From a virus: a stretch of DNA of 64,000 nucleotides. Every line of letters begins with the position of its first letter. Within the stretch, counting starts at the first letter, position 1. The notes below the pieces were generated by a model. That model made no database searches and was not told the DNA's origin. It was given only the letters and a program-made list of their open reading frames with translations. The stretch covers positions 15,849-79,848 of the IMG/VR virus record IMGVR_UViG_3300047496_000262; one strand, given 5' to 3'. The position numbers and the translations under genes were made by a program. Below are positions 10,164-60,890 of the stretch, in pieces.

Positions 10164-10540
10164 CCGCGGCCGGAAGGTGCTTGAGAGACAGGACCTGCCG
10201 CACCGAACCCGGCCCGACCCCGCCGCGCCCCACCTTGACTGCATGACCAGGACGCGCCGCGACGTAACGAGCCTTGACCCACCACGACCGCCCTGACTCG
10301 CCTTAACCGGCCAAGCACACCTCGCCTCGACCGCCAGACCGTGACGCGACAGACAAGGCCTAGACCCACCTTGACTGCCGAACCCGGAACAAACACGACG
10401 GGCCCGGCCAAAACAAGCCCTGACCGCCTTGACGGTCGCACCGGAACGCGCCTCGACACGCCATACCTCAACGTGCCCCACCTTGCCTGAACCCACCTCA
10501 ACACACCAAATTTGGACCGTCTAACCTTCCTTGACCGCGG
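10164..10540 (-). ncRNA. pentameric G(G/U)Y-NN repeat array 1 (candidate multi-guide RNA, VIPR-like) enclosed by a long-range stem
   Basis: The plus strand parses as about 58 R(C/A)C-NN pentamers with GACY-GC phase breaks at 10237, 10286, 10329, 10373 and 10422. The flanks 10164-10191 and 10517-10540 are complementary on the minus strand. Confidence 0.75.
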
Positions 10541-10543
10541 CTC

Positions 10544-10861
10544 CTAAGCCGCCATATCCGCCTCATTATCCGGCGGATCCTGCTCCGACCCGTCGTCGTC
10601 ACCGCGTTGAATCGCGCGGATTTCGGCGTCGATGCCGGTAATTTGTTGCACCAGAAGCGCGCGGTTGCATCTCAGCCGGCCCAGCAGAAGTTCGTTTAGC
10701 GCCATGATAGTACGAACGTACACCGGAACCGGCAGATCGCCGCTGACCCATCGATAAACCGTGTTCAGGGCACAACCGGCCTGGGCGCCCAGTTGCCGGC
10801 GGCTGATGCCCAGCGTCTTCAGCGCGGCATTCAGCGATTTTCCATCGGTGATCGGGCTCAT
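10544..10861 (-). CDS. XRE/Cro-family HTH protein
   Basis: LNAALKTLGISRRQLGAQAGCALNTVYRWVSGDLPVP. Confidence 0.8.
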   Translation of the reverse strand: MSPITDGKSLNAALKTLGISRRQLGAQAGCALNTVYRWVSGDLPVPVYVRTIMALNELLLGRLRCNRALLVQQITGIDAEIRAIQRGDDDGSEQDPPDNEADMAA

Positions 10862-48555: not shown

Positions 48556-48556
48556 C

Positions 48557-49246
48557 ATGTCGGTCCTGCCCAGCGGTCCGTTCAGCTATTACAAGGGATC
48601 GGAACTGCCGGCCGCCGTGCTGGACGCCTCGTTCGGCGGGCTTTATCCGACCACGCTGGCGACCCTCCGAACCCTGGTGCGGTGGGCCGGCACGGTCGGC
48701 GCCAGCCAGGCGAGCGGGCCGCCCAATGGATCGTGCTGGCTACTGGGGATCAACACCCTGGGCGATCACGCGCCGATTCAGTACGAATGGGTGGCCTCCA
48801 GCACCGCCGCCGACGATGCGGTCAGCTATACCGCCATCAACCCGACCGGCAATACCGGCAACGGCAGATGGATCAGGGTGGGATCCAGCAGCGACCCGGT
48901 GCTGGCCCCGTTCATTCCCGGCACGCCGTTCGGCGGCGGCGCCACGCTGTGGAGCTATACCCTGCCGGCGGCGCTGACCCTGCCGGCCAATTTTGCCGGG
49001 AGTGCCGCCAGTTGCGACACGGCCCCGACCAACACCGCCACATTCCAAGTCCAGCGCTATGTGTCGGCGACCCCGGCCTGGGTGAATATCGGCACGGTCA
49101 GCTTTGCCGCCACCACGGGGGTGGCGACCTTCTCGACCCAAGCGGCGGTGGTGTTTCAGGCGGGCGACCGGATCCGGGTGCTGGGCCAAAGCGGCACCGA
49201 TGCCACCATGGCCGGCGTGTGCTTTTCATTCCAGATGCTGAGGTAG
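48557..49246 (+). CDS. tail-associated protein
   Basis: MSVLPSG..., contains an ADD....I.P....G.GRW module and a C-terminal beta domain. Confidence 0.65.
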   Translation: MSVLPSGPFSYYKGSELPAAVLDASFGGLYPTTLATLRTLVRWAGTVGASQASGPPNGSCWLLGINTLGDHAPIQYEWVASSTAADDAVSYTAINPTGNTGNGRWIRVGSSSDPVLAPFIPGTPFGGGATLWSYTLPAALTLPANFAGSAASCDTAPTNTATFQVQRYVSATPAWVNIGTVSFAATTGVATFSTQAAVVFQAGDRIRVLGQSGTDATMAGVCFSFQMLR

Positions 49247-49253
49247 CCCGCGC

Positions 49254-50237
49254 ATGACCATCCTCTTTTACGACGGGTTCCTGCGCTACAGCAGCCAGTA
49301 CGACGTGCTGACCCGGATCAACGATAATGCCGCGTGGCATACCGGAGCATCGGCCGGGCTGAATATCGGATCCGGCCGGAATGGCGGCAACTGCATGATT
49401 GGTGGCTACAACTCGGTGGTGCTGAACACGCCGCTCGCCACCGGGGCCGTGCAATGCGCCATCGACCTGAACAACAGCGCCACGTTCAACATTTATTTGC
49501 AGGACTCGGCGCACGGCAACGGCAACCAGGTTACCTTTACCTTTAACCTGTCGAATGGGGTGCTGACCGCGACCTCGGGCAGTAATTCATGGTCGACGCC
49601 GAACAACACGGTACCCGGACCCTACACCTATTTTTCGTTCGCCGCGCAAGTGACGATCGGGGCCAGCGGCACCGGGTCGATCAGCGCCTATATCAATGGC
49701 GTACAGGTGCTGAATCAGCCCGGCGTCACCACACAGCAGACGGCGGGGACCACCTTTGACACGATTGTCTTTACGACGATCTATGGTCAGTACACCGATG
49801 TTTGCATTTCGACCACGCTGGTCGGCCAGGATGCCTATTCGATCTGGATCCCGGCGCTGGCGAACGGTGCCACCGATCAGTTCACCCCGCTCTCCGGGGC
49901 CAACTACACCAATGTCAACGGCCTGACCCAGATCGCGAAGTACAATTCGAGTGCTACGGTGGGCAATGTTGACCTGTTCACCCTGTCGAACAGTTCTATT
50001 TCCGGCAGCACGATTCTGAGTCTGGAGCCCGGCGTGCAGGCCTCGCGCGACAATACCGGATCGCACAGCATGGCGACCTATATGCGATCAACCAGTGGCA
50101 CGCTGACCACCGGCACCTCCTATGCCCTGAGCAGCACCGCCATCGTGTTTGGCACGCCTTATGCCACCGATCCGGCGACCTCGTCGGCGTGGCTGACCAG
50201 CGCCTTGCCGCAGGTGGGTTACAAGCTGGCCGCTTAA
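49254..50237 (+). CDS. tail-associated beta-sandwich (lectin-like) protein
   Basis: M..LFYDGF, INGVQVLN..GV.T, TDP.T..AW; Ser/Thr/Gly/Asn-rich. Confidence 0.65.
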   Translation: MTILFYDGFLRYSSQYDVLTRINDNAAWHTGASAGLNIGSGRNGGNCMIGGYNSVVLNTPLATGAVQCAIDLNNSATFNIYLQDSAHGNGNQVTFTFNLSNGVLTATSGSNSWSTPNNTVPGPYTYFSFAAQVTIGASGTGSISAYINGVQVLNQPGVTTQQTAGTTFDTIVFTTIYGQYTDVCISTTLVGQDAYSIWIPALANGATDQFTPLSGANYTNVNGLTQIAKYNSSATVGNVDLFTLSNSSISGSTILSLEPGVQASRDNTGSHSMATYMRSTSGTLTTGTSYALSSTAIVFGTPYATDPATSSAWLTSALPQVGYKLAA

Positions 50238-54859: not shown

Positions 54860-55492
54860 GTGATCATCCAAGGCCAGATCGGCGCGCTTGCCACCACCGC
54901 ATCCCTAGCCGCCGGCTTTAACCCGAATATCCGCCTGGGCAATATGGGCGATATGGTCGTCTCGGAACTCCACGGCCGATATTACGAGGGTTCGTATCGC
55001 CGCGCCCGGTACAATATCGCCAGCCCCAGCGGCGTGACCACGAGTGTCGGTGCCGCCACCACCTATGTCGGCCTGTGCCTGTCGAACCCGATCAACGCGC
55101 CGGTCAATCTGGTGCTGGAAAAGGTGGGTCTGGGCTTTCTGGTGGTCTGGGGTGCTGCGGCGACGCTGGGCCTGATGTGCGGGTTTAATTCCGGCACCAA
55201 TGTCACCCACACCACGCCGCTTTCGCCCCTGTCGAACCTGATCGGTTCCGGGGCCGCGCCCTATGGCAAGGTGGATTCGTCCGCGACCCTGCCGACGGCA
55301 CCGGTGCTGACCCATGTGTTCGGGGCCGGCCTGACCGGTGCGATCACCGTGCAGACCGCGGAGTTGTCGTTTTTCGACCTGGAAGGCTCCGTCATCCTGG
55401 CGCCGGGCGCCTATGCCGCGATCTATACCAGCACCGCGTCGGGGACCAATTCGTTCTTCGGTTCCCTGTCGTGGGAAGAAGTGCCGCTGTAA
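54860..55492 (+). CDS. putative virion protein
   Basis: SELHGRYYE, L.NP....VNLV and DLEGS..L.PG.......W.EVP. Confidence 0.65.
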   Translation: MIIQGQIGALATTASLAAGFNPNIRLGNMGDMVVSELHGRYYEGSYRRARYNIASPSGVTTSVGAATTYVGLCLSNPINAPVNLVLEKVGLGFLVVWGAAATLGLMCGFNSGTNVTHTTPLSPLSNLIGSGAAPYGKVDSSATLPTAPVLTHVFGAGLTGAITVQTAELSFFDLEGSVILAPGAYAAIYTSTASGTNSFFGSLSWEEVPL

Positions 55493-55555: not shown

Positions 55556-55960
55556 ATGGCCTATGATGACGGGTCCAATGATAATTCGCGCCTGAACCGT
55601 ATCAGCCGGCTGGCCGCCTCGCCGATCGCCACCTCGATCGCGCGCCTGATCACCATTTTCGGCGGGCCATCGGCGCTGGGCGCGCTGTTCGTGCTGACCG
55701 CCGCCGAACGCGAGATGCAGGCCGACCTGCATCAGATTGGCGAAGATATGGTGCATATGGATGAGCGCATCACCCGCCTGGAGCAGGACGAGATCAACGC
55801 CAAATCGTCGTACCAAGTGACGCGCGATCAACGCGACAAGCAGATTTCAGAGCTTCAAGCCGGTCTCAACGGCATGCACGAGGATATCGACCGGCGGTTC
55901 AATAGTTTGGACGGCCGCGTCCGGTGCCTTGAACATGGCGTCGCCAAGGGGTGCCCGTAA
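55556..55960 (+). CDS. single-TM coiled-coil protein (lysis accessory candidate)
   Basis: N-terminal hydrophobic segment followed by a long heptad region; near the endolysin. Confidence 0.55.
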   Translation: MAYDDGSNDNSRLNRISRLAASPIATSIARLITIFGGPSALGALFVLTAAEREMQADLHQIGEDMVHMDERITRLEQDEINAKSSYQVTRDQRDKQISELQAGLNGMHEDIDRRFNSLDGRVRCLEHGVAKGCP

Positions 55961-55965
55961 CAGCA

Positions 55966-55995
55966 ATCAGGCGGCGGGGTGAACCGCCGCCTGAT
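55966..55995. terminator. 12-bp hairpin between the converging late operon and array 2
   Basis: ATCAGGCGGCGG / CCGCCGCCTGAT perfect stem; followed by TGCTGTT on the minus strand. Confidence 0.65.
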
Positions 55996-56009
55996 GCTTC
56001 GTAGTGGTG

Positions 56010-56445
56010 GACGGCCATAACATGCCCCGCCGCACCCCGCCACAACTCGACCAACCACGACGGCCTTGCCAAGACTTGCCGCGCCCGACCCAACCGCGAC
56101 GCGACGAGCCCAAACAAGCCTTGACGCACCTCGACAGCCGAGCCCCGCCCGGCCTTACCCCGACATGCCGAGCCATGACGGCCTCGCCATACCTTGACGA
56201 GCCCTGCCTAAAACCGCCTGGACGGCCTCGCCAGGACTCGACGCACCAAGCCTCGACTCGCCGTGCCAAGCCTCGACTGCCATACCGTACCCCGCCTTAC
56301 CTCGCCTCGACAGGCCAGGACTATCCCAACCGTGACCGCCGTACCACGCCAGGCCGCACCAGGACGTGCCTCGCCATGCCTAAACAGAACCAGCCTAGAC
56401 CGCCATGATGCGCCAGGACACGCCGAGCCTCACCTTTCCGCGACA
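56010..56445 (-). ncRNA. pentameric G(G/U)Y-NN repeat array 2 (candidate multi-guide RNA, VIPR-like)
   Basis: 80 pentamers in 8 units (9,14,8,8,10,11,12,8) with GACN-GC phase breaks at 56010, 56059, 56133, 56177, 56221, 56275, 56334, 56398 and 56442. Confidence 0.8.
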
Positions 56446-56477
56446 GCGCGCCAGATTTTCGCTGGCCCGCAGTGGAA

Positions 56478-56505
56478 ATTTTGCATTCGAGGTGCCCCCG
56501 GTCAA
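56478..56505 (-). promoter_or_regulatory. promoter pointing into array 2
   Basis: TTGACC-16 nt (ending TG)-CAAAAT; the -35 box overlaps the inverted repeat CAAGCGA-N5-TCGCTTG. Confidence 0.55.
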
Positions 56506-56518
56506 GCGAAATTCTCGC

Positions 56519-56547
56519 TTGCGCGAAATATCGCGCTGGCTTACGGT
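56519..56547 (+). promoter_or_regulatory. divergent promoter for the endolysin
   Basis: TTGCGC-17 nt-TACGGT. Confidence 0.5.
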
Positions 56548-56561
56548 TTTGGAATAGGGAG

Positions 56562-57245
56562 ATGCCAATGATACAGCCCGCCGTCTTAGCCGCATGGCGA
56601 CCGTGGAATGTGCCGCTAGAGGGCTGCACTTTTTGGTTGTACGCCGACACGTTACAGCTTGTGACCACCGGAATCGGCAATTTGGTCGACCCGCTTCCCT
56701 TGGCCCTGCGGGTGCCATGGAAGCACCCGGACGGCACGCTGGCGAGCGCGGATGAGGTTGCCGCTGAGTGGCAGGCGGTGAAAAACAACACCGCCCTGGC
56801 GCAACAGGGTGCCAGGGCCGCGGAGCGCGTCACCACGCTGCGGATTACCGATGCCGATATCGACGCCCTATGCGCCCAGCAACTGGCGGCCAACGCGAGC
56901 ACGATGAAGCTCCACGGGGCCTTTGCCGGGTTCGACCTGTGGCCCGCCGATGCGCAGATGGGCGGCTCCAGCATGGCCTGGGCGATGGGCCCGGGATTCG
57001 GGGCGTCCTGGCCGCATTTCTCGGCGGCGGTGGCGGCCGGCGATTGGGCTGGCGCGGCGATCAACTGCTGGATGGCCGATCGCGGCGGCGATCTGACCAA
57101 CCGCAACGACGCCACCGCAAACTGTTTCCTAGTGGCGGATTACGTCGTTCGCTATGGGTTGGATCCGACCGTCCTGCATGGCCCGGTGCCGTGGCAGGCG
57201 CTCCCGAACTGGGATGGGGAGATGGTGCTGGCGGCGTCGGCGTGA
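56562..57245 (+). CDS. endolysin (T4-lysozyme/GH24-like)
   Basis: LEG....LYAD....VTTGIGNL (E-x8-D-x5-T triad); W.....Q.....MAW.MG and F..A...GDW..AA. Confidence 0.8.
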   Translation: MPMIQPAVLAAWRPWNVPLEGCTFWLYADTLQLVTTGIGNLVDPLPLALRVPWKHPDGTLASADEVAAEWQAVKNNTALAQQGARAAERVTTLRITDADIDALCAQQLAANASTMKLHGAFAGFDLWPADAQMGGSSMAWAMGPGFGASWPHFSAAVAAGDWAGAAINCWMADRGGDLTNRNDATANCFLVADYVVRYGLDPTVLHGPVPWQALPNWDGEMVLAASA

Positions 57246-57741: not shown

Positions 57742-57817
57742 GTCGGGGTGGAGCAGATGGTAGCTCGTCAGGCCCATAACCTGAAGGTCAGAGGTTCGAG
57801 TCCTCTCCCCGCCACCA
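57742..57817 (+). tRNA. tRNA-Met(CAT), initiator-like, with atypical positions
   Basis: D arm GAGC/GCTC, anticodon arm TCAGG-CCCATAA-CCTGA, T arm AGAGG-TTCGAGT-CCTCT, encoded ACCA end. Confidence 0.88.
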
Positions 57818-57832
57818 CTTAGGAGACCGATC

Positions 57833-58147
57833 ATGCGCTTAAGTACGATACTCTTTGCTTACGCCGCCGGCCTGTCTCTGGGCGTCCTGGCGGGCTGCAC
57901 CGCGCAGCAGGTCGCTACCGTCGAGACTGACGCATCGGCGGTGTGCGCCACGATCAGCGCCACCGAGGCGGCGATTGGGCCGCTCAATCTGGTGCCGATC
58001 GTTTCGACCACCGAGGCGTATCTTGGCGACGCGTGTACCCTTGAAAAGCTGGCGGTGGCTGACGTGCCGTGGCTCTATACGTTCGCGGGTAACCTCAAGT
58101 CGACTGTCGCGGCCGTGAAGCTGGGCAAGGTGCCGGCAGGGTCGTAG
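57833..58147 (+). CDS. putative lipoprotein
   Basis: Signal peptide with LAGC lipobox; AGGAG RBS. Confidence 0.7.
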   Translation: MRLSTILFAYAAGLSLGVLAGCTAQQVATVETDASAVCATISATEAAIGPLNLVPIVSTTEAYLGDACTLEKLAVADVPWLYTFAGNLKSTVAAVKLGKVPAGS

Positions 58148-59096: not shown

Positions 59097-60890
59097 ATGG
59101 GGACTGACGTGGCGGAGTCGCGCGAATTTCGGCCGGTATTCACAGAGGCGACGCCGGGCGACCTAGCCAGGCGTCATTGTGCCGGGATCGCGCCGGAGTC
59201 ACGTCTGGCCTTCGCACAGCGTTTCACCTTTACGATCGTCGAGGCGTGGTGGCGGGCACTCGGGCCGCGCTGGATGTTGCGCGAACTGCCGGGAGCGTCG
59301 GATCTGATCGGCCTGACGATGGAGGACGCCAATACGGCGTCACGAATCGGCGAGGGACTTGCGGCAAAGGAGCCGCGGCAAGCGGCGGGTTTGATCGGTG
59401 CAATCTACGCGGCCTGTCTCCCGGATACCTACCGGGCCGCCCATGGAATCTACTACACGCCACCAGCACTCGCGGATCGGCTTCTGCTGATGGCGGAAAA
59501 CGCCGGTGTCGCGTGGAGGACCGCAAGTGTGCTCGATCCCGCTTGTGGCTCGGCGGCGCTACTGCTGCCGGTGGTATCCCGGATGGTGGATGCACTGGCC
59601 GGAACTGATCCTGCCTCTATCCTGCAACAACTCGGGCTGCGGCTCAGAGGGATCGACATCGATCCGTTCGGCGCGTGGTTGGCGCAAGTGGCACTCGATT
59701 TCGCGCTTTTGAATCTGACCCACGCGGCAGGGCAGCCGGCACCACGGATGATCGAGAGCCGCGATAGTCTTGACCGGCGGCTGGCTGATCTCGAGCGGTT
59801 CGATCTGGTCATCGGGAATCCGCCTTACGGGCGGATTTCGCTGCCGCCAGCCCGCCGCGCGCTGTTCCAGCGCAGCGTTTACGGCCACGCCAATCTCTAC
59901 GGGCTGTTTACCGATGCCGCGCTGCGGTGGGTTAGGGTCGGCGGGGTCGTCGCCTATGTCACGCCCACCTCGATGCTGTCCGGCCTCTATTACCGGGCTC
60001 TGCGCACGCTCCTCGCGGCGGAGGCGCCGCCGCTGGAGGTGAATTTCGTGGGCGAGCGTAACAACGTGTTTGCCGATGTGCTGCAGGAGACGATGCTGGC
60101 GACCTATCGGCGAGGTGGCCGTGCTATCCCCGGCCGCGTGGGATTTCTCGATACCGGAACGACAGGTCAGGTCCGTCTTCAGAGGGGCGATACATTCACG
60201 CTGCCGGCTGATCCGAGCTCGCCCTGGCTGCTGCCGCGCTCGTCCGACCAGCTATCGCTCTCGCGACGCCTGCGCCTGATGCCGCATCGCCTCCGGGATT
60301 ATGCCTATGGCGTATCGACCGGGCCGCTCGTGTGGAACCGGTTCAAGCCGCAACTCGCAACGCTGAGGACCGACGATGCCTACCCGGTCATCTGGGCGGA
60401 GTCGGTGACTAGTGACGGGCGGTTCGTATGGCGGAGCGAAAAGCGCAACCATGCGCCTTGGTTCGTGGCGCGGCGTCCCAAGGATGATTGGCTGATCCTT
60501 GACCGGCCTTGCGTCCTGGTTCAGCGAACCACCGCGAAGGAACAGAAACGGCGTCTGATCGCCGCGGAACTGCCTGATGAGTTTATTCGCCCTCACGTGG
60601 CGGTCGTGGTGGAGAATCATCTCAACATGGTGCGGCCGGTATCGCCGGCGGCAACGCTGCCGGCGGCGGTGATCGCAGCACTGCTGAACAGTGCCGCCGT
60701 CGATGCCGCGTTCCGGTGCATCAATGGATCGGTGGCGGTGTCCGCGTTTGAACTGGAAGAACTGCCGCTGCCGGCGCCTTCGGTCTTGAACGCGCTGGCG
60801 CGGCTGATCTCCTGTGGGGGGCCGTCGCATAAGGTGGAGGCGTTGATTGCGGCGGCCTATGGGCGGGCGGATGCTGCCGCCGCTGCCTGA
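59097..60890 (+). CDS. type II N6-adenine DNA methyltransferase (Eco57I/BsuBI/PstI-like, gamma class)
   Basis: GIYYTP, VLDPACGS, GIDID, DLVIGNPPY, NLYGLF and VSTGPLVWNR. Confidence 0.9.
   Translation: MGTDVAESREFRPVFTEATPGDLARRHCAGIAPESRLAFAQRFTFTIVEAWWRALGPRWMLRELPGASDLIGLTMEDANTASRIGEGLAAKEPRQAAGLIGAIYAACLPDTYRAAHGIYYTPPALADRLLLMAENAGVAWRTASVLDPACGSAALLLPVVSRMVDALAGTDPASILQQLGLRLRGIDIDPFGAWLAQVALDFALLNLTHAAGQPAPRMIESRDSLDRRLADLERFDLVIGNPPYGRISLPPARRALFQRSVYGHANLYGLFTDAALRWVRVGGVVAYVTPTSMLSGLYYRALRTLLAAEAPPLEVNFVGERNNVFADVLQETMLATYRRGGRAIPGRVGFLDTGTTGQVRLQRGDTFTLPADPSSPWLLPRSSDQLSLSRRLRLMPHRLRDYAYGVSTGPLVWNRFKPQLATLRTDDAYPVIWAESVTSDGRFVWRSEKRNHAPWFVARRPKDDWLILDRPCVLVQRTTAKEQKRRLIAAELPDEFIRPHVAVVVENHLNMVRPVSPAATLPAAVIAALLNSAAVDAAFRCINGSVAVSAFELEELPLPAPSVLNALARLISCGGPSHKVEALIAAAYGRADAAAAA

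Follow-up and report, generated by a model that had tools for sequence, protein, structure and literature searches.

A probable staggered VIPR guide-RNA array in a phage from a moss metagenome, with no vipr gene found on its contig

Phage record and genes around array C

The virus record IMGVR_UViG_3300047496_000262 is a linear contig of 79,848 bp from a moss metagenome assembly, about 88% complete according to CheckV. The window analysed here is a 64,000-nt stretch of this record. The record contains three arrays of tandem pentamers, designated A, B and C, all on the minus strand and dispersed over about 70 kb; together, they comprise approximately 24 guide-like units. The capsid protein of the phage has many relatives with 63–81% identity, encoded on contigs of about 60–87 kb. 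One of these relatives is found in an Acetobacteraceae MAG, which makes an acetic-acid-type alphaproteobacterium the probable host; from the capsid relatives, the host is probably a member of Acetobacteraceae.

Array C (window 56012..56444, minus strand) lies between two plus-strand genes, neither of which matches a Pfam or PHROG family. The 134-aa gene at 55556..55960 converges on the array, and its product has a single hydrophobic stretch and a tail resembling a coiled coil. The 227-aa gene at 56562..57245 diverges from the array promoter candidate and shows faint lysozyme similarity only (E 0.8). The earlier note on this DNA placed the array antisense inside a lysis module; the antisense position among plus-strand genes holds, but the lysis assignment finds no backing in the family searches. 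No close relative of the array C neighbourhood was found in the phage collection or in IMG/VR, and the 227-aa gene has a single homologue, 37% identical, which is not accompanied by an array. Further along, the phage carries a plus-strand tRNA-Met gene with a CAT anticodon (57742–57817), followed by a 104-aa ORF with a lipoprotein signal (57833–58147) and an Eco57I-type N6 DNA methylase gene (59097–60890).

The array is preceded by a sigma-70-like promoter candidate, TTGACC-16-CAAAAT, located on the minus strand at 56478..56505 and assigned by consensus match only. The site proposed earlier was recovered by a scan; it has 9 of 12 consensus matches, with 0.1 such sites expected in shuffled sequences. 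RNA started there would begin approximately 27 nt ahead of the first pentamer. At the opposite end, a GC-rich 12-bp hairpin (55966..55995) separates the array from the converging gene 55556–55960; it lies 17 nt past the last pentamer and folds as had been described. The 77-nt trailer of the array has a minimum free energy of −35.5 kcal/mol (z = −3.9). This hairpin, with its weak U-tract, is a probable two-way terminator or 3′ cap. A terminal GC-rich hairpin is present at all three arrays (z = −2.4 for array A and −4.2 for array B).

An imperfect palindrome of the TCTCGCTTGCGCGA type is located just upstream of the array C −35 box (56513..56528). It is one mismatch away from a recurrent 14-bp operator-like motif, TYGCGYNNRCGCRA, which has five exact copies in the genome. 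Palindromes of the GCGCGA...CGCGC type lie ahead of each array, at 56513–56528 and approximately 10610–10625 in the window for arrays C and B, and at approximately L001 2290–2310 for array A; those of arrays A and B have the 12-mer CGAAATCCGCGC in common. The likeness of the palindromes to TYGCGYNNRCGCRA suggests that one regulator may control the arrays together with other promoters.

A moss/plant metatranscriptome library contains a 363-nt contig that spans window positions 55840–56202 and so takes in the end of gene 55556–55960, the hairpin and the final three and a half array units. Two bases differ, 55966 A>T and 55996 G>T, one on either side of the hairpin stem. The contig is unstranded and could be DNA carry-over; it provides a weak hint of array C expression. 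The two RNA runs, X3 and X4, seem to be a single data set deposited twice; they leave the promoter-proximal portion of array C uncovered, a gap that is uninformative.

Organisation of array C

Array C was characterised by parsing, unit relocation, periodicity analysis and shuffling. Parsing of the minus strand gives an unbroken chain of 88 pentamers, from 56444 down to 56012, arranged in eight units. The form G-[G/T]-[C/T]-NN (G-K-Y-NN) is followed by 95% of the pentamers, in agreement with the earlier reading of this strand as a pentamer run. The triplets comprise GGC (48%), GTC (25%), GGT (17%) and GTT (6%), giving 65% GGY and 31% GTY. The information content of positions 1–5 is 1.82, 1.09, 1.06, 0.07 and 0.01 bits. 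The NN positions are thus free to vary, as previously noted: they are approximately uniform despite the 63% G+C content of the genome, and 15 of the 16 dinucleotides are used. The units are also unlike one another, since no pair has similar NN strings and the highest pairwise likeness is 62%.

In minus-strand order, the units contain 9, 13, 12, 11, 9, 9, 15 and 10 pentamers, with spacings of 44, 64, 59, 54, 44, 44, 74 and 49 nt. Their minus-strand positions in the window are 56444–56400 (C1), 56400–56336 (C2), 56336–56277 (C3), 56277–56223 (C4), 56223–56179 (C5), 56179–56135 (C6), 56135–56061 (C7) and 56061–56012 (C8). The spacings are those reported in the earlier note, in reverse order; the pentamer counts given there were too low because the junction pentamer of each unit had been omitted. 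All seven junctions are a 4-nt step, GGC-N-G|TC. As each unit starts with GUC and ends with GGC-N, neighbouring units overlap by 1 nt, with one G common to both.

The autocorrelation of array C has peaks at lags of 5, 10, 15 and onward. The power at period 5 is 3.79, compared to 0.72 at period 3, and the flanking genes show the opposite. The 3-nt coding periodicity is absent from the array; the dominance of period 5 indicates that the ORFs spanning it are by-products of a stop-poor repeat. The junction pattern has five matches in the window, compared to 0.00 expected from 100 shuffles, and no array appeared in 20 Markov-2 simulated genomes; these controls exclude a chance origin of array C. 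A search of Rfam returned tRNA as the only match and no family for the array.

Arrays A and B

Array B (window 10185..10517, minus strand) consists of approximately 62 pentamers, 92% of which are G-K-Y. Its units contain 17, 2, 10, 9, 4+5, 10 and 11 pentamers, and variant junctions, GACC|GTC and TGCA|GTC, are present. A gene at 10544..10861, on the same strand, encodes a 105-aa HTH (XRE-like) protein with weak matches to HTH_23 and phrog_4779. The stop codon of this gene is 26 nt ahead of the first pentamer of array B, and the two are probably co-transcribed.

Array A is located on the minus strand at L001:2095–2262 in genome coordinates, approximately 13.6 kb before the window. Its junctions are as in array C and 84% of its pentamers are G-K-Y. 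The neighbouring genes encode a C-5 cytosine DNA methylase (L001:2797–4173) and a class II ribonucleotide reductase (L001:2–2086); the latter gene contains a LAGLIDADG intein and is truncated by the contig end. Array C is more regular than either A or B.

Relation to VIPR systems

VIPR is a CRISPR-related phage silencing system described in April 2026 (bioRxiv 10.64898/2026.04.26.720920). The Vipr protein is a small Cas7-like RAMP protein that binds with one protomer per repeat (10.64898/2026.04.26.720920; structures in 10.64898/2026.04.26.720927), and its guide, the vrRNA, consists of 9–16 alternating GGY/NN repeats (10.64898/2026.04.26.720920). The NN dinucleotides pair with DNA in such a way that every third base is skipped (a 1-nt skip), and the outcome is the transcriptional silencing of competing mobile elements (2026 preprints). 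VIPR types I–VII are defined by the protein. The first preprint also describes ‘staggered arrays’, where each vrRNA shares 1 nt with the next (fig. S18 legend), and states that they were not confirmed by sRNA-seq (10.64898/2026.04.26.720920). A language-model survey has also recovered VIPR arrays in bulk.

The earlier note had likened the array to such RNAs, with a RAMP/Cas7-like partner, one subunit per pentamer and a gapped code; the 2026 preprints bear this comparison out. As VIPR and its staggered arrays are already published, a new kind of element finds no support here. Array C has the properties of vrRNAs with respect to runs of at least four tandem pentamers, hypervariable NN, 9–16 repeats and the 1-nt overlap, while a vipr gene in the locus and a vap gene beside it are both missing on the 79.8-kb contig.

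IMG/VR was scanned for the junction pattern embedded in G-K-Y pentamers, and the same array grammar was found in at least 118 contigs. Among the matches listed, a Vipr homologue, detected with a profile made from SUSP1 Vipr homologues, is present in 91 of 118; for most of the Vipr-negative loci, the sequence ends too near the array to judge. Of 233 array segments among these matches, 221 (about 95%) have vipr upstream and in the same orientation, the closest at 12 nt and the median at 369 nt from the array. The vipr-linked units listed mostly contain 8–13 pentamers, with a GTC start in 70% and a GGC end in 94%. The array-linked proteins share a G-loop motif, GVGDWRP...G.FG.F, and their profile matches PDB entry 36pp, ‘SUSP1 Vipr protein’, with E 1.6e-15. 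The trailers of vipr-linked arrays among the matches listed are likewise enriched in structure, with z < −2 for 38% against 2.5%. That the same grammar recurs in at least 118 IMG/VR arrays, mostly adjacent to vipr, supports the VIPR reading of array C, which agrees with the class in all its sequence features.

The triplet shares of vipr-linked arrays among the matches listed are 0.42 for GGC, 0.23 for GGT, 0.17 for GTC and 0.11 for GTT, and GTY amounts to 28%. The frequent GUY variants of array C, which had been singled out as notable, are present at 31% but are therefore normal for the class. Sequence of more than 2.7 kb upstream was available for about 8 of the 118 arrays listed in which no Vipr was detected (L015, L031, L044, L048, L068, L094, L102 and L106), which makes them candidates for solo or vipr-distal arrays. 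With approximately 8 of 118 listed arrays lacking Vipr, vipr-less staggered arrays constitute a minority, and array C is not unique in this respect.

Array C resembles VIPR staggered arrays in its fixed G-G/U-Y and free NN, 9–15 repeats per unit, the 1-nt overlap and its location on a phage. Unlike them, it is found on a phage contig with no vipr or vap gene, and it has its own promoter-like site in an antisense position among plus-strand late-region genes. The type II VIPR locus of Escherichia phage phiSUSP1 (KT454805), in which vipr (195 aa), vap1 and the flanking GGY-NN runs were located directly, uses the same pentamer code. The SUSP1 vrRNAs, however, stand apart as individual units of about 100 nt that flank vipr–vap1, each with a conserved 3′ tail and nearly all GGY, whereas the units of array C are not separated by tails and GUY makes up about 31%. 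A further likeness is to the class 1 crRNA/Cas7 backbone, where the guide is coated by evenly spaced RAMP protomers and bases are kept out of pairing at regular intervals by a thumb. The step there is 6 nt with one base hidden, in contrast to 5 nt with three bases hidden here; unlike CRISPR arrays, array C has neither a repeat–spacer structure nor cas genes or machinery for acquisition.

Solo (vipr-null) vrRNAs were reported in October 2026 for phages of the SUSP1 family and for F5 satellites (10.64898/2026.10.15.759431). They are thought to use the Vipr of another element, as ‘guns for hire’, and those of satellites are reported to redirect the Vipr of the helper phage to decoy sites (10.64898/2026.10.15.759431). 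The phage studied here is similar in that its guide RNAs are carried by a mobile element without vipr, as judged from a contig that is 88% complete. Solo vrRNAs, which occur singly or in pairs in enterobacterial phages, are of type II and have a pseudoknot tail; they sit where vipr–vap1 was deleted, and their predicted targets are vipr, satellites and other vrRNAs. The moss phage differs: it has approximately 24 staggered units without tails, spread over three arrays, its genome has a G+C content of 63%, and the searches with its guides yielded no targets.

Search for the Vipr protein

No Vipr was found beside arrays A, B or C, or anywhere on the 79.8-kb contig, in any of the profile and motif searches. 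The absence of a protein adjoining array C, remarked on in the earlier note, is thus real and extends across the whole contig. Nothing on the contig was recovered by phmmer with SUSP1 Vipr and vap1 as queries, by hmmsearch with two Vipr profiles (made from 120 type II homologues and from 91 staggered loci) or by a six-frame Vipr profile search. Comparison of all contig ORFs of 110–480 aa with Vipr using hhalign gave a best probability of 14%. A search for the G-loop motif, which recovered 86 of 91 known Viprs as the positive control, found no Vipr on the contig; the sole match to the motif, 48556–49254, is an out-of-frame ORF. Among the neighbours of the arrays, the ORF downstream of array A encodes the intein-containing class II ribonucleotide reductase, the gene upstream of it encodes the C-5 DNA methylase, and the gene upstream of array B encodes the small HTH protein. 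The vap genes and other gene clusters recurring beside vipr in the 91 loci have no homologue on the contig. Type II and staggered Viprs detect each other with E values of 1e-8 to 1e-19, and a Vipr reading G-K-Y would therefore probably be detectable.

Vipr is absent from the approximately 88% of the phage genome covered by the contig, and about 12% lies outside the record; a scan for relatives of the last complete gene of the contig, sought as a means of extending the record, found none. Because vipr is not on the contig, the protein would come from the missing 12% or from another element in the cell, in which case the arrays would be solo guides; these two sources are considered about equally likely. 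The 71.5-kb IMG/VR contig G002, from a relative with a capsid protein 70% identical, has vipr followed directly by GGY-NN arrays (L173:5546–6644) with long runs and few 4-nt steps, while three complete capsid relatives (59–73 kb) have neither vipr nor arrays; VIPR is therefore an accessory trait in this phage group.

Vipr-bearing elements are also found in the candidate host family, with Vipr present in 3 of 121 sampled Acetobacteraceae genomes. In the Acetobacteraceae MAG G006 (contig C6, L182:8434–10267), vipr is followed by a staggered array of about 480 nt on the same strand; this vipr matches the staggered-class profile with E 3e-91. The contig has no genes in common with the phage, and a 69%-identical capsid relative is located on another contig of G006.

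Search for targets

Targets were sought by applying the 1-nt-skip rule to the NN strings and requiring a match at 80% or more of NN; the rule may not hold for the staggered class. Sixteen well-defined guides from the phage arrays were compared, with shuffled guides as controls. No targets above the shuffled background were found in about 1.7 Mb, comprising the phage, 118 VIPR loci, 43 loci of relatives (capsid neighbourhoods) and the vipr-bearing contigs L173 and L182. Exact gapped patterns gave no match for C2, C7 and C8 in viral contigs or for C2 and C7 in metagenome contigs. C7 with up to three mismatches had no match in 401 genomes of the candidate host family, nor did mismatch-tolerant patterns of C2, C3 and C4 in four host-family genomes, three of them with Vipr.

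The best match within the phage genome, C8 with 16 of 20 in gene 54860–55492, is attributed to chance, given p = 0.17 against shuffles and the location of the skipped bases at codon position 1. The exact gapped scan with C4 gave one match (20 of 22 NN) at L122:9951–9979. It falls in a coiled-coil segment, EIAELTEELAELD, and the gene, SbcC-like and encoding an ATPase, belongs to an unrelated phage with 42% G+C. This match is probably also due to chance, since no other guide matches the contig and such peptide repeats are common. Self-targets are lacking in the VIPR systems of the original preprint as well (10.64898/2026.04.26.720920).

Interpretation of the arrays

Taken together, the grammar and its occurrence next to vipr in other contigs make it likely that array C is a VIPR-type staggered vrRNA array working by the published mechanism. 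All steps of this mechanism, from transcription to silencing, are transferred from the 2026 preprints. The minus strand would be transcribed from the promoter candidate 56505–56478, ending at the hairpin 55995–55966. Vipr would coat the RNA with one protomer per pentamer, gripping G-[G/U]-Y and exposing NN; the 4-nt steps (GGC-N|GUC) would break the register, yielding eight guides of 9–15 pentamers each. The NN of each guide, with one base skipped between them, would specify a DNA site to be bound and silenced by the complex, and the silenced DNA would most likely belong to a competing mobile element.

A non-guide origin of array C, as a protein-coding repeat (such as the 134-aa plus-strand ORF 56004–56408) or a structural DNA repeat, is highly improbable. 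Long ORFs are indeed open on both strands over the array. A translated protein had been put forward earlier as the alternative source of the periodicity, but period 5 is dominant and period 3 absent, and the register shifts by −1 at every junction, so that no single frame could read through. These pseudo-ORFs recur over arrays in unrelated contigs only because they translate the repeat, and no Rfam family matches array C. It is also unlikely that the three arrays are decaying relics, i.e. unused leftovers of a system whose vipr was lost, which have not yet eroded. The missing Vipr and the missing targets are in keeping with decay, as are the lower G-K-Y content of arrays A (84%) and B (92%), the odd junctions and the mini-units of two and four pentamers. 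On the other hand, array C retains 95% of its 88 scaffolds and all seven junctions, a terminal hairpin is present at every array and a promoter-like site at array C. The arrays are in three separate places, each with no vipr remnant, and decay would thus require three independent losses or arrays moving alone; moreover, functional solo vrRNAs are documented elsewhere (10.64898/2026.10.15.759431).

Alternatively, in an appealing version of the solo reading, the long RNAs might act as a sponge or decoy that soaks up or misdirects the Vipr of a rival, the NN content being of little weight. Approximately 24 guide-like units with no effector gene found, the lack of targets and the presence of Vipr-bearing elements in the candidate host family would all suit this role, and the solo vrRNAs of satellites are reported to redirect helper Vipr to decoys (10.64898/2026.10.15.759431). 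The published decoys, however, keep sequence-specific targets in host repeats, and the same data fit ordinary guides whose targets are missing from databases. An NN composition close to uniform, despite a genomic G+C content of 63%, fits information-bearing guides no less well. The sponge is judged improbable. The staggered vrRNA array working by the published mechanism remains the preferred reading. By analogy with solo vrRNAs, it can be tentatively suggested, with more doubt than confidence, that the phage truly lacks vipr and that its approximately 24 staggered guides, in three arrays each transcribed separately, may load onto the Vipr of co-resident prophages or rival phages, redirecting it to targets that suit the phage or soaking it up.

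Significance

Staggered arrays have so far been a computational observation in a supplementary figure. The IMG/VR survey provides a baseline for the class, with at least 118 contigs, vipr upstream on the same strand in about 95% of array segments and about eight vipr-less candidates. Array C, with seven perfect junctions and 95% scaffolds, is a clean staggered example and would be a convenient substrate for studying how such an RNA is cut into guides. If the phage is truly without vipr, the ‘guns for hire’ principle would extend to whole staggered arrays and to an unrelated high-G+C lineage. Effector-less arrays, and not only single guides, would then be carried by phages outside Enterobacteriaceae, which would bear on the sharing and hijacking of RNA-guided systems among mobile elements.
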